Under the pieces are notes generated by a model. The model was given only the letters and a program-made list of their open reading frames with translations. It was not told the origin of the DNA and ran no database searches. From Escherichia coli (GTDB lineage Bacteria; Pseudomonadota; Gammaproteobacteria; Enterobacterales; Enterobacteriaceae), in the NCBI RefSeq assembly GCF_001677475.2, contig NZ_CP015229.1: a stretch of 64,000 bases of DNA. One strand, given 5' to 3'. Positions 24,520 to 33,539 of this stretch are shown here, piece by piece; position 1 is the stretch's first letter, and each line of letters starts with the position of its first letter. Both the position numbers and the translations under genes were made by a program.

Positions 24520-25323
24520 TCAGAAATACCCCACCACCGGCGTCAGATTACCCTGCCAGCGTTTTACCGGCTCCTCAGCACCGGGGAAATTCACCCGCAC
24601 ATCACTCAGGGATGTCACCCAGGCACCGGCAATATGCTGGCTGCCATTCTCCTGTGACAACAGCGACTCAGCGCCTGAAATAAACACATCAGGACGCGCG
24701 GTTAACCCGGCATAGTCCGGGGTCCATTCATAGCCGTTCACCTGCCATAACTGGTGTTTTACCTGTTTTTCGGCCCCCGGCGTCACCTCTCCGCTGACCA
24801 CACTCCATCCATGCCCGGCAGTAATGTTGTCCTGCCATACCAGCAAATGGCGAACGGTGAACGTAATTTCCCCGTAACGCACCTGCCCCCGGGCAAGCTC
24901 TCCCCGGGCCTCAATACGGGGGGATGACGGTGTCACCTGAAGCAATGTCACTGACGGCTGCAGTCCCGGACGGGCGGTTGTCAGCGATGTGGTATGTCCG
25001 CCCAGAATATAAAAAACCTGCCCAGCCCGGCCTTCACTGACCATGCCACCTTTACCCGTTGTCAGACCAGCCTGCACGGCGTCTGGTGTACTCATCCGTA
25101 CAGAGTGGGGCTGCCACTGCCAGGAAACCTCAGGGACATACAGCGTGCCGCTGAATTCCGTCACCCCCACGGCCATCCCCTCCTGCCAGTGTCCCGGTGG
25201 AATAATCAGGGGCTGCGCCAGCACACTGGCTGAAGTCAGAAAAAACAGAGCCGGAAACATACCGGACTTCAGACGATGAATAATATTCAGCACCGGACCC
25301 TCCTCCTGCTTACTGGTACTCAA
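24520..25323 (-). CDS. Fimbrial minor subunit, FaeJ-like (K88/F4 family)
   Basis: 267-aa FaeG-family paralogue, last gene of the fae-like cluster; start overlaps the end of the upstream gene. Confidence 0.55.
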   Translation of the reverse strand: MSTSKQEEGPVLNIIHRLKSGMFPALFFLTSASVLAQPLIIPPGHWQEGMAVGVTEFSGTLYVPEVSWQWQPHSVRMSTPDAVQAGLTTGKGGMVSEGRAGQVFYILGGHTTSLTTARPGLQPSVTLLQVTPSSPRIEARGELARGQVRYGEITFTVRHLLVWQDNITAGHGWSVVSGEVTPGAEKQVKHQLWQVNGYEWTPDYAGLTARPDVFISGAESLLSQENGSQHIAGAWVTSLSDVRVNFPGAEEPVKRWQGNLTPVVGYF

Positions 25324-26098
25324 TACTTACCGGCAGTGACACCCGCCAGCGTTCCGGCATCGCGCCGTTCAGACGTAATTCAGCACTTCCTGCCACAGTC
25401 TGTGCACCATACGCACCTTCAATCTGGCGCAGGGAGGCATCACTGAAATGACTCACTCCCGAATAACCACTGACTGTCATTGTCTGCAGCCAGCCGGGGC
25501 CTTCGCCACTGAACATTTTCTGCAGAACACCCGGAATATCAGAAGCTTTCATGGCCGAGCTTTCACCAGGCAGGCCATTTGCATTCAGGTCGTCATACAC
25601 GCCGTCATACACCGGCTGCCCGTCCTTCACATGGCGCAACACCCCTGCAGTCTGCATTCTGAAAACAAATGTGCCTGCCCGGGCGTTATTATCTCCGGTG
25701 ACAGGCAGCGTCACCTCCGCCACGCCTGGTGCTGTCCATTCAAGCGAAAATCCCTCAGTACCCTTTCCGTAACTGACCCGGGGAGAAAGCCCCTCACGTC
25801 CTGCCGGTGTGGTCAGGGTGGTTTTTCCCAGTAAAACAGTCATCGCCGGTAGTGGAACCGGCACTCCCCCACCGTCACGAACACCGCGGCTCTGTTTAAC
25901 CTCCAGACCTTCATTTCCCTGCCCGACTTTCCACACCCACGGGTTACGGATGCTGGTCACCGGGCCTTCCAGCTTAAGCTCTCCGCTGAAATCTTCTCCC
26001 GGCGTGTTCCAGGCAAGTACACAGGAAGGCAGGAGGCTGGCAGCAAACAGAAACAACGTCACCTTTTTCATTTCTCTTCTCTCCTTATATCCCTGCAA
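25310..26098 (-). CDS. Fimbrial minor subunit, FaeI-like
   Basis: 262 aa with signal peptide MKKVTLFLFAASLLPSCVLA; FaeG-family size and position. Confidence 0.6.
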   Translation of the reverse strand: MQGYKERREMKKVTLFLFAASLLPSCVLAWNTPGEDFSGELKLEGPVTSIRNPWVWKVGQGNEGLEVKQSRGVRDGGGVPVPLPAMTVLLGKTTLTTPAGREGLSPRVSYGKGTEGFSLEWTAPGVAEVTLPVTGDNNARAGTFVFRMQTAGVLRHVKDGQPVYDGVYDDLNANGLPGESSAMKASDIPGVLQKMFSGEGPGWLQTMTVSGYSGVSHFSDASLRQIEGAYGAQTVAGSAELRLNGAMPERWRVSLPVSIEYQ

Positions 26099-26101
26099 CC
26101 A

Positions 26102-26905
26102 TCACTGTACCGTGACTGTCACATTCAGCCCCGCCTGCCATGCCGCAGGTGTACCCTCTGCCGGCAGACGCAGCTCAAAATCCGACACCGCAGAGGCATA
26201 TGCCGCAGCCAGATTCATCACCCGACCATCAGCCAGTATCCCCTGACTGATAACCTGTCCGTTATCCACCGCATTCATGCCATTTCCAAAATTCTGATTC
26301 ATCAGTAATAAGGCAGACAGACGGTTCTTCAGCCCCTGTGGCAGACTTCCCGGCTGTACATCCGTCACACTTTGTCCACTTACCAGCGACATACCGGCCG
26401 GTACGGATACCCCGTCTTCCTGTCGACCGGCACTGACTGCCATCCCCTGATTCAGGGTAAAAGAAAGCTGTCCCGACACATTTCCCGTTTCCGGGTCACG
26501 CACCGGGACAGAGGCGCGGAAACGTTGCGCCGTAGTGCCACTGCCTTCCTTTACGGTAAAAGGCTGTCCGTTACTGCTGAAGGTAATAAATGGCGTGAAC
26601 CCGGGACCACCGCGCTCTGCCACCTCATGCAGATGCCCCTCCAGAAACGGCAGAGCCCCTTTATCACGCAAATTAAAAACCAGTTGCCCGTTCTCTGTAC
26701 GTGCATCAGCAGTATCCACTGCCCAGGTCTGGTCCGGTGAACTTATCTGCCAGGTCCATTTGGGGGCTTCATCCGTGACAAAGCCGTTAAACTGAATTTC
26801 GCCGCCATCAAGAATATCTGCATGTGGTGCTGCCGAATAAAACAGGGTCACCGAAATAATGGCAGAAAGAAGGGATTTATAATGATGCGTTATTTTCATC
26901 GACAT
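26102..26905 (-). CDS. Fimbrial minor subunit, FaeH-like
   Basis: 267 aa with signal peptide; FaeG-family size and position. Confidence 0.6.
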
Positions 26906-27103
26906 TCACTCTGTTTTATCCGGAGGATACAGCCCCCCTCAAAGTAATTTGGTCAAATATAAAACAGCACAAAACCGACATGCGTCACAAAATATCAAAA
27001 TATCTGCTCCGCATGCCGATTCTGTGTATTCTGAACTCTAAAAACAGAGTCCAGAAAATTTAATCAACAGCAAACGAGGTATTTACTGTCAACGATTACT
27101 GAA

Positions 27104-31931: not shown

Positions 31932-32454
31932 AGGTCAGCGCCCCCGTGTATTCCCCCGCCTTCACGTCAGCCGGAAACACTGGCTGCGCACGAAAACGGA
32001 ACTGTCCCTTAGCAGCAAACTCCACCGGGTAATTCACCGAATGACTGTCCTGAGTCAGACGTCCGCGATAATCAGCCTGAACATCCACTGCCCGCACATC
32101 CACGCGAATACCATCACCGGCACCGCGGGTGACCACACCTCCCGCGTCCAGTTGGCCCGGGTTACCAAAATCCAAGGTGGCGACCTGCCCAGCCTTAAAG
32201 GCTGAGCAGCCCTGAACCGAGGCGCCGGACTCATACAGACGCACCGTGAAGTCACGCGGCGGTACAGACGCCCCCGTGGACTTGCGGTAAGTCCCGAATG
32301 TCAGCCGGCCACTGTTGCCGGTGCTGTCCGCATCCACCACCACATGACAGGCTGAGGCCACCACGTCAGCACTGAATACGGTTTTCTGAACAGTGGCGTG
32401 AGAAACCCCGCCCCCTGCCAGAAGCAGAAGTACTGAAAGCGATAAATTTTTCAT
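31912..32454 (-). CDS. Fimbrial minor/tip subunit, FaeC-like
   Basis: 180 aa with signal peptide [20 protein letters not shown]; first structural gene, overlapping the usher start. Confidence 0.6.
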
Positions 32455-32461
32455 GCAACTG

Positions 32462-32761
32462 TTATCCCGTATATGGAATACTGGCTTCTGATATATAAAA
32501 AGGAACCAGCCTGTTTACCGCCTGATGGGTACGCTGAATACGCCCGAGAGCACCAGAGAAATATCCCTGAGAAACCTCATGTCGTTCACAGGCCTCCCTT
32601 CGGGTATAACCCAGAACCAGAAAATCCCTCAGCGCATTAAGAACCTTTTCACTGTGAACCGGAGATATTTCAGCTAATAACCAGAACTGGCTCTCTGACA
32701 TTTTTCCGGGCGACAAAGTACGCCCGTGCTTCTTGCTCAGGTACAGGTCACTGCTGTTCAT
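32462..32761 (-). CDS. PapB/FaeA-family fimbrial transcriptional regulator
   Basis: 99 aa; ...[55 protein letters not shown]... aligns with PapB (...MSEMHFFLLIGISSIHSDRVILAMKDYLVGGHSRKEVCEKY...NGYFS). Confidence 0.7.
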
Positions 32762-33332
32762 TTACATCTATTCCAGAAACATAACCAGACAAAAAGACGA
32801 CATAAATCCGGATAACAAAAACGTATTCACTCTGCTGCCGTCCTGTTTTCTGCGGCGAAGACTATCATGGTGTTTTATAGCGAAAAACACTAATTTCACG
32901 ATCTTTATAACTAAAATAAAGAACAACAACAGCACAAACAGCCAAACAAAAACCAAAGACACAGAACAAACAACCAAAAACAAACAAAAATACAGATAAA
33001 AAGATCGTCGTTTTTGTGAGCATCAATATTGAATTCTGAACGAACTTTTTATGTTAATTTGGATTTTCATCAAAAAACAGATCATGTTTTTCATATAAAA
33101 AATGAATTTAGAATCACAGGAAATATTAAAGTGGGAAATTAAAATAACAGAAGGAAATATACGCATAATCATCTGCAGGTTAATAACGTAATCAATAACC
33201 AGAAACATTGTAAAAAACATGTTATGTGGTTGATTTTTTATGTGTTTTATAAGAATCAAAAGTGGGCGTGGAGGAGGAAGTCAGAGGCAGGTTATAATAA
33301 AGTGAATATTACAGATAAGGATGTAAACAGAA
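32762..33332. promoter_or_regulatory. AT-rich divergent regulatory region between the PapB-like and PapI-like genes, with Pap-like GATC pair
   Basis: 571-bp intergenic region, strongly AT-rich. GATC at 32900-32903 (cacGATCtttat) and 33003-33006 are 103 bp apart (pap GATC sites are about 102 bp apart); a third GATC at 33080. Confidence 0.5.
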
Positions 33333-33539
33333 ATGAAGAAAACGCAGATACTGTCTTTTATTCAGGAGATAAACATGCCATGCAGAACGACTGATATTTC
33401 TTCACATTTTGACATGAGCACTTATCAGGCCCGCCATTACCTTATGTGTCTTGAAAAAGAGGGAAAAATAAGACGTACACCTCTTCGTCGTGGTGCCCGT
33501 ACTTTATGGGAGGTGGTCAGAGAAACAGAAAAGCATTAA
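33333..33539 (+). CDS. PapI/FaeB-family regulator
   Basis: 68 aa; ...STYQARHYLMCLEKEGKIRRTPLRRGARTLW matches the PapI core ([30 protein letters not shown]). Confidence 0.7.
   Translation: MKKTQILSFIQEINMPCRTTDISSHFDMSTYQARHYLMCLEKEGKIRRTPLRRGARTLWEVVRETEKH

Follow-up and report, generated by a model that had tools for sequence, protein, structure and literature searches.

Fimbriae of the K88 (F4) type and their relatives, among them F41 and CS31A, are familiar for combining a conserved assembly backbone with an exchanged cassette that encodes the major subunit. K88 itself is encoded by the genes faeA to faeJ on a plasmid of porcine enterotoxigenic Escherichia coli (ETEC), represented here by that of strain W25K (NZ_CP091039.1), whereas F41 (fim41a, strain CFS3246), from bovine and porcine ETEC, is chromosomal. 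CS13 of human ETEC, with its pilin CshE, also has a major subunit of the F4 family. The K88-like factors of Escherichia cryptic clade I, which are carried on virulence plasmids, vary mainly in faeG (Okuno et al. 2023; PMC10100065). In this study we analyzed a fae-like locus in a 64,000-nt stretch of E. coli contig NZ_CP015229.1 (assembly GCF_001677475.2), referred to below as the window. An original prediction, made from the letters of the sequence, had proposed a complete K88-like chaperone-usher operon on the chromosome between positions 24520 and 33539. We consider it highly probable that the locus is indeed a fae operon of K88/F4 type, complete and of the chaperone-usher class, that it lies on a chromosomal island of an Escherichia strain, and that it works by the mechanism proposed in the following paragraphs.

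Ten open reading frames (ORFs) occupy 24520–33539, nine on the minus strand and one, upstream of them, divergent on the plus strand (Table 1). The map is colinear with the annotated K88 and F41 loci and with the fae-like locus in the chromosome of E. coli A41. All proteins align over approximately their full length, and at equal length, with homologues annotated by the NCBI Prokaryotic Genome Annotation Pipeline (PGAP) on the W25K plasmid, in F41 CFS3246 and in A41; this end-to-end agreement with three reference loci therefore indicates that there are no hidden frameshifts. Typical N-terminal signal sequences are readable in the translations. The ten genes in fae order, the intact frames and the signal peptides of the original prediction were thus all found. 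Its several overlapping junctions fared less well. Gene starts were taken here from annotated homologues, whereas the earlier coordinates were those of the longest ORFs. With the homologue-based starts, the usher and chaperone genes do overlap by 8 nt (29454–29461), an overlap that is also annotated in A41, K88, F41 and public contigs, but the C/D, H/I and I/J junctions are gaps of 13–30 nt. Since only the usher/chaperone junction overlaps under these starts, the number of overlaps had been overstated. Overlaps at C/D and I/J were rejected because they hinge on longest-ORF TTG starts that the homologues do not use. At the other end, the functional unit probably extends past 24520 to two more co-oriented genes (23057–24446), which the original prediction had missed.

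The products of faeC, D, E, F, H, I and J share 87–96% protein identity with K88 (plasmid W25K) and 92–99% with the chromosomal F41 and A41 loci (92–98% for F41). The usher and the chaperone, at the identities given in Table 1, are orthologues of FaeD and FaeE. The usher also scores 1211.7 bits with the NCBIfam PefC/AfrB usher model, against a curated cut-off of 752, and the chaperone matches the NCBIfam fimbrial chaperone family (1.2e-58). The FaeF-like protein falls in DUF5462, the FaeF family, and is 89% identical to K88 FaeF and 99% identical to A41 FaeF. For the FaeC-like subunit, the Pfam family K88_fimbrial_pA is precomputed on the identical gene in public contigs, and among the four FaeG-type paralogues three match Pfam Fimbrial_K88 at E ≤ 0.001 and all four at E ≤ 0.1. 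The NCBIfam search gave no match for subunits or regulators; these were assigned instead through Pfam and by comparing them directly with loci already annotated. PGAP evidently names such genes by rules other than NCBIfam, and its names for the homologous genes in related genomes are faeD, faeE, faeF, faeH, faeI and faeJ. Of the two regulators, the FaeA/PapI-like protein is 95.6% identical to the A41 'FaeA/PapI family transcriptional regulator', and the PapB-like protein is 97–99% identical to its F41 (97%) and A41 homologues, which are annotated DaaA, and 56% identical to K88 FaeB. With this backbone and these names, the assignment to fae, and not to some unrelated family of fimbriae, stands.

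By homology to K88, the subunits would leave the cytoplasm through Sec and be bound in the periplasm by the FaeE-type chaperone, and donor-strand exchange at the FaeD-type usher would polymerise them, with the FaeC-like subunit initiating the fibre. The 263-aa FaeG-family protein would be both the shaft of a thin, flexible fimbria and its adhesin, and the FaeF-, FaeH-, FaeI- and FaeJ-like subunits minor or accessory components.

The major subunit is where the locus departs from its relatives. It is 28% identical to K88 FaeG, 30% to Fim41a and 29% to the A41 subunit, but it belongs to Pfam Fimbrial_K88 (PF02432) and aligns by sequence, along its entire length, with PDB chains of FaeG (E 1.2e-8), the FaeG variants there matching at E 1e-8 to 0.09. 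An AlphaFold (AF2) model built with 33 homologues reached a predicted local distance difference test score (pLDDT) of 83.5 and a predicted template-modelling score (pTM) of 0.82. Low confidence was confined to the signal peptide and residues 24–42, the latter being expected of an N-terminal donor strand without its partner. When this model was searched with Foldseek, the top 18 PDB matches were all FaeG (E 6.7e-15 to 6.5e-12, template-modelling (TM) score about 0.55–0.69, 21–24% identity), and the next match had E 1.3e-2. Sequence and fold therefore both place the protein in the FaeG family. At 28% identity to K88 FaeG it is not F4 in the strict serological sense (FaeG variants ab, ac and ad), so the fimbria would not be F4 antigenically, and on its sequence the locus is a member of the K88 family and not K88 itself. 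The earlier statement that the major subunit is divergent, with unknown receptor specificity, was right.

The variant is rare: none of 5,426 complete E. coli genomes and none of 72,556 plasmids has it, and draft assemblies that carry it number a few dozen. The best plasmid relative in PLSDB is 46% identical, and the nearest named subunit in that search is CshE of CS13, at 38–40%; the subunit of the clade I plasmid factor K88-like_10290 is about 30% identical. In a collection of 5.8 billion proteins, the nearest non-identical relatives are at 79% and then at 61–67%, those with names coming from E. coli and cryptic-lineage Escherichia (Escherichia sp. TW09308 and MOD1-EC strains). Public records already include an identical protein (ANO90828.1 and others), annotated as 'hypothetical' or 'fimbrial protein', and is indexed in 28 blocks of a public contig collection, from which 23 contigs were read.

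In blastn comparisons, DNA homology to A41, F41 and K88 is lost at 26932 and returns at about 27788 (at 27837 in the comparison with F41). The GC fraction is 0.418 at 27001–28000, against 0.51–0.52 in the adjacent 1-kb bins, and is 0.57–0.60 over most of the remaining operon; the bounds 26932–27787 coincide with this trough. Matches in complete E. coli genomes never span more than 50% of this region, and the major-subunit gene is the portion that they never cover. The breakpoints delimit an 856-bp low-GC cassette that has been swapped in on a conserved backbone. Such cassette exchange by recombination would yield a fimbria of a new antigenic type.

The spacer behind the major-subunit gene forms three long hairpins, with a minimum free energy of the RNA of -79.3 kcal/mol (z = -8.3; none of 200 shuffles was as stable). 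Strong folding is likewise predicted for the corresponding spacers of K88 (z = -4.1) and A41 (z = -3.9), and the three do not align with one another. The hairpin spacer travels with the variable cassette. An Rfam search of 21.8–34.2 kb gave no match, the spacer included. The idea that it is a dispersed repeat was rejected: there were five weak matches, and those that could be checked adjoin major-subunit homologues of other fae-like loci. The pap, fan and fae operons provide the general basis for reading such structures as stabilising or attenuating mRNA. By analogy with them, the hairpins are presumed to set the ratio of major to minor subunits. They would probably stabilise the upstream transcript, attenuate read-through, or both, leaving an excess of major over minor subunits.

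FaeA and Lrp control the expression of fae, which methylation also influences, and the switch mechanism formed by Dam, Lrp and PapI has been described (PMC12388093). As in Pap (P fimbriae), the locus has divergent PapI-like and PapB-like genes, and the 571-bp spacer between them contains three GATC sites (32900–32903, 33003–33006 and 33080–33083), where the nine structural genes have five in 8.3 kb. The first two sites sit within inverted CGATCTTT boxes, 103 bp apart from G to G, and neither box varies between the window, A41, F41 and K88, despite diverged surroundings. The GC fraction is 0.36 at 33001–34000. Unlike Pap, where the two inverted boxes are also about 100 bp apart, the locus has a third GATC and structural genes of a different usher clade. 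Paired boxes of this kind are a hallmark of Pap-type switches, and by analogy a Dam/Lrp switch of that type most likely controls the operon and makes its expression phase-variable. At the two boxes, Dam methylation would face competition from Lrp and the PapI-like protein, and the PapB-like protein would act as a local regulator. The invariant inverted boxes, together with the known control by FaeA, Lrp and methylation, thus make phase variation a well-founded expectation.

Table 1. Features of the fae-like locus and its immediate flanks, in window positions.
Feature	Position	Strand	Start, assignment or basis
PapI/FaeA-like regulator, 68 aa	33333-33539	+	divergent from operon; Pfam FaeA PF04703 1.5e-29
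AT-rich regulatory spacer, 571 bp	32762-33332	.	between divergent regulators; GATC boxes
PapB/FaeB-like regulator, 99 aa	32462-32761	-	Pfam PapB PF03333 1.5e-37
FaeC-like minor (tip) subunit, 180 aa	31912-32454	-	88.8% identity to K88 FaeC
FaeD usher, 814 aa	29454-31898	-	GTG 31898 by homology; NCBIfam NF011760; 93.8% to K88 FaeD
FaeE periplasmic chaperone, 263 aa	28670-29461	-	GTG 29461 by homology; 95.8% to K88 FaeE
FaeF-like minor subunit, 163 aa	28144-28635	-	Pfam DUF5462 2.6e-67
Major subunit, presumed adhesin, 263 aa	27104-27895	-	Pfam Fimbrial_K88 9.6e-54
Variable cassette (mature major subunit and 3' spacer), 856 bp	26932-27787	-	blastn breakpoints
Structured spacer 3' of major-subunit gene, 198 nt, three long hairpins	26906-27103	-	RNA folding
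FaeH-like minor subunit, 265 aa	26102-26899	-	ATG 26899 by homology; 90.6% to K88 FaeH; Pfam Fimbrial_K88
FaeI-like minor subunit, 253 aa	25310-26071	-	ATG 26071 by homology; 87% to K88 FaeI; Pfam Fimbrial_K88
FaeJ-like accessory subunit, 257 aa	24520-25293	-	GTG 25293 by homology; 90.3% to K88 FaeJ
orf213	23805-24446	-	uncharacterised; REC-like/HTH fold prediction
Stand-alone EAL protein, 252 aa	23057-23815	-	Pfam EAL PF00563 1.6e-64
82-aa ORF, probable subunit-gene remnant	22428-22676	-	signal-peptide-like N-terminus; comparison with strain MEW
IS21-family element (istA, istB) in ISL3 transposase gene	34124-36532	+	NCBIfam IS21 transposase, IstB

The window opens with core genes (tRNA-Phe, yqgA, speC, nupG, mltC, mutY, trmB, yggN, ansB and yggM). 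At about 97% identity to the best of the complete genomes, the core genes (1–13270) suggest a lineage absent from that set, possibly cryptic clade I. Where the core sequence would be expected to continue after yggM, there are instead a fragment of a tripartite ATP-independent periplasmic (TRAP) transporter and an insertion sequence (IS) of the IS66 family. In addition to these, the left side of the operon comprises a TssA fragment, a NERD+UvrD helicase, a PD-Lambda-1-like protein and YdcA. The two defence-type genes at 18076–21300 on the minus strand, encoding the NERD+UvrD helicase (PADLOC C3a187, 1.1e-142) and a T5orf172/GIY-YIG protein with a PD-Lambda-1 match (3.8e-88), are conserved together with the fimbrial locus in public contigs. 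To the right of faeA, an ISL3 transposase gene is split by the IS21 element. Contigs of GCA_016125675.1, of GCA_018682865.1 and of a Logan assembly match the 13,123 bp at 21001–34123 with 100% identity; since these otherwise identical contigs have an intact ISL3 transposase gene and no IS21 insertion, the insertion is recent and specific to this strain. Further right come more copies of IS21, IS3 and IS256, then CP4-type island genes and Ag43. The continuity with core genes and these surroundings therefore place the locus in the chromosome, on a mosaic island.

A chromosomal position among IS elements had been claimed, and it is real; what was overstated is its implied novelty. When the 9-kb segment was compared by megablast with the complete genomes, matches were found in 158, with query coverage of at least 80% in 30. 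Of the 199 matching places, 165 are on plasmids and 34 on chromosomes, classical F41 included. The best match is the A41 chromosome (93.6% DNA identity over 91% of the query), which also shares the right-hand island genes with the window. Closed chromosomes of A41, A31, Ecol_244, MEW and F41 strains all carry a fae-like operon. Such PGAP-annotated operons, like the clade I K88-like factors (PMC10100065), have the same twelve-gene layout, including the two genes beyond faeJ. In F41, the faeA/papI-like gene is not annotated because IS600 replaces it.

The two genes beyond faeJ, orf213 and a gene for a stand-alone EAL protein, are co-oriented with the operon and overlap each other by 11 nt. The segment matches 128 of the 5,426 genomes, always beside fae-like operons and on chromosomes as well as plasmids. 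Both genes are present in A41 and MEW, and F41 has orf213 (96.7% identical) and a truncated EAL gene. The closest solved relative of the EAL protein is YahA/PdeL of E. coli (E 8.5e-53), and in that alignment it keeps E-L-L-V-R (E-x-L-x-R), N, E-L-T-E, D-D-F-G-T-G, K, E-G-V-E and Q-G. We take these to be the catalytic motifs of EAL domains; on that assumption, the catalytic and metal-binding residues are present, and the protein is probably, by homology, a phosphodiesterase of cyclic di-GMP (c-di-GMP). It has no PADLOC match.

The partner is harder to place. No match to orf213 was found in Pfam, NCBIfam or PADLOC, and a profile search against PDB sequences gave matches at chance level only. Its 117 homologues, in Escherichia, Salmonella, Shigella, Edwardsiella and Citrobacter, are all annotated 'hypothetical'. 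An AF2 model (pLDDT 83.3) has a five-stranded alpha/beta domain resembling a receiver (REC) domain, followed by a four-helix C-terminal domain. The Foldseek matches of this model are to ChrA, FixJ, EvgA, VpsT and CsgD-like or LuxR/NarL-type regulators, at modest scores (E 1e-4 to 1e-6, full-length TM score about 0.45–0.58). Sequence matches to REC and GerE/LuxR models, which together with a phospho-acceptor pocket mark NarL/FixJ/CsgD response regulators, were not found in it, and orf213 is therefore likened to these regulators by fold but not classed among them. The model thus predicts an orphan response-regulator-like protein with a REC-like domain and a C-terminal helix-turn-helix (HTH). A 57%-identical relative is encoded by S. 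Typhimurium SL1344. Strict coupling of orf213 to the EAL gene was rejected, as homologues of orf213 at 52–53% identity occur on plasmids with no adjacent EAL gene. Those homologues lie near pef-like fimbrial genes or next to a gene of GerE/LuxR type (for example, at 10001–10666 of a Salmonella IncFII plasmid contig).

Other fimbrial clusters are already known to contain a gene for an EAL protein, namely MrkJ, FimK, SfaY or STM0551 (PMC3487979). As in those clusters, the EAL gene lies at the distal end of a chaperone-usher cluster, and its product resembles PdeL/YahA; unlike them, the EAL domain here stands alone and is preceded by an overlapping gene for a REC/HTH-like protein without a family at the sequence level. 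Our literature search found no description of the orf213/EAL pair, or of an EAL gene linked to K88-family operons. The two genes may be co-transcribed with the operon, and the pair probably links fimbrial expression to c-di-GMP signalling. We advance only tentatively, and with some doubt, the broader proposal that many F4-family operons end in this conserved and previously undescribed tail, in which an orphan REC/HTH-like protein is translationally coupled to a PdeL-like EAL protein as a built-in regulatory link.

Beyond the EAL gene, an 82-aa ORF has a signal-peptide-like N-terminus and a 'GGFQGAVEFGGTIT' motif that weakly resembles the N-terminus of FaeG (E 0.002). Homology to A41 ends at 22422. 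At the same position in strain MEW there is a full-length 'F4 family fimbrial subunit' of 294 aa, followed by an S6 peptidase of the serine protease autotransporters of Enterobacteriaceae (SPATE). The ORF is probably the N-terminal stump of one more subunit gene of the F4 family. An 83-aa ORF and putative gene (22627–22878, minus strand), located between this stump and the EAL gene, has a Gly/Ser/Cys-rich tail (…GEGVSEGSGCASGCCN) and no family match.

Several points weigh against parts of this account. The two GATC boxes are 103 bp apart, where the spacing in pap is 102 bp. A simple scan for sigma-70 promoters and terminators returned nothing above shuffled background. The role of FaeB in K88 is itself unclear (PMC12388093). 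For the tail, K88 has neither gene, its homology to the window stopping about 50 nt into orf213, and the EAL gene of F41 is truncated; the plasmid-borne homologues of orf213 without an EAL neighbour point the same way. The adhesive role of the major subunit is extrapolated from K88 at 28% identity, and the operon could be silent under most conditions. This last point can be taken further. The operon might be intact but cryptic, silenced, for example, by H-NS acting on the AT-rich regulatory region, and thus be horizontally acquired cargo heading for decay. AT content is high in the regulatory spacer as well as in the cassette of the major subunit, the promoter scan was blank, and the island around them is eroded, with its TRAP transporter and TssA fragments, split ISL3 transposase gene, truncated extra subunit and IS elements. 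However, amid these fragmented neighbours none of the ten genes or of the two tail genes has lost its full-length frame, several independent assemblies share the 13-kb block at 100% identity, and the regulatory GATC boxes are strictly conserved, so that we regard a cryptic operon as rather unlikely.

A different division of labour among the subunits is also conceivable. Receptor binding might reside in a conserved minor subunit (FaeC-, FaeH-, FaeI- or FaeJ-like), with the variable major subunit serving mainly for antigenic variation. Between K88, F41 and this locus, conservation is about 90% for the minor subunits while the major subunit is swapped, a pattern that would be compatible with immune-driven diversification. 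F41 and K88, however, share minor subunits yet differ in receptor specificity. In K88 the binding site is on FaeG, and the FaeG–lactose complex (4wei) is among the closest fold matches of the major subunit here. Binding in K88 is moreover distributed along the shaft (PMC12388093). A minor-subunit adhesin is therefore improbable. That the locus is in truth plasmid DNA or an assembly chimera might be suspected from the preponderance of plasmids among the matching places, and from the many flanking IS elements, which could cause mis-joins. Yet the window is continuous from the tRNA-Phe, yqgA and speC genes to yggM, and on through the locus to the CP4-type island genes and Ag43, and the operon is found on the closed chromosomes of other strains, including that of A41 with the same right-hand neighbours; there is very little chance that it is misplaced. 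Least credible of all is an origin of the structural genes in some other family within the usher clade to which fae belongs (Pef, AF/R2-Ral or K99). The sole NCBIfam model passed by the usher is indeed named 'PefC/AfrB family', and the PapB-like regulator shares no more than 56% identity with K88 FaeB and has homologues called DaaA in related genomes. But the seven backbone proteins share 87–96% identity and gene order with K88, PGAP gives their homologues fae names, and FaeG is the only solved fold that the major subunit matches, which refutes this origin in practice.

The operon family, its occurrence on chromosomes and the cassette-swap pattern are already known, and the sequence itself is public and of a kind that automatic annotation would handle; to that extent the annotation is correct but ordinary. 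What is new is a rare, uncharacterised major-subunit variant on a standard fae backbone, that is, one more antigenic or receptor variant of the K88/F41/CS31A colonisation factors, and of modest importance. It fits a family that evolves by swapping major-subunit cassettes on a conserved assembly backbone. Because the variant is rare and its nearest relatives are in cryptic-clade Escherichia, it could mark a host adaptation of that lineage. The orf213/EAL tail is the only lead with some novelty and the part most deserving of experiment. If the tail is co-expressed with the operon, c-di-GMP would be lowered, transcription reprogrammed, or both, whenever the Pap-type switch is ON. This would tie the adhesin family to the decision between motility and biofilm formation, much as for MrkJ, FimK and SfaY, with a new partner protein.

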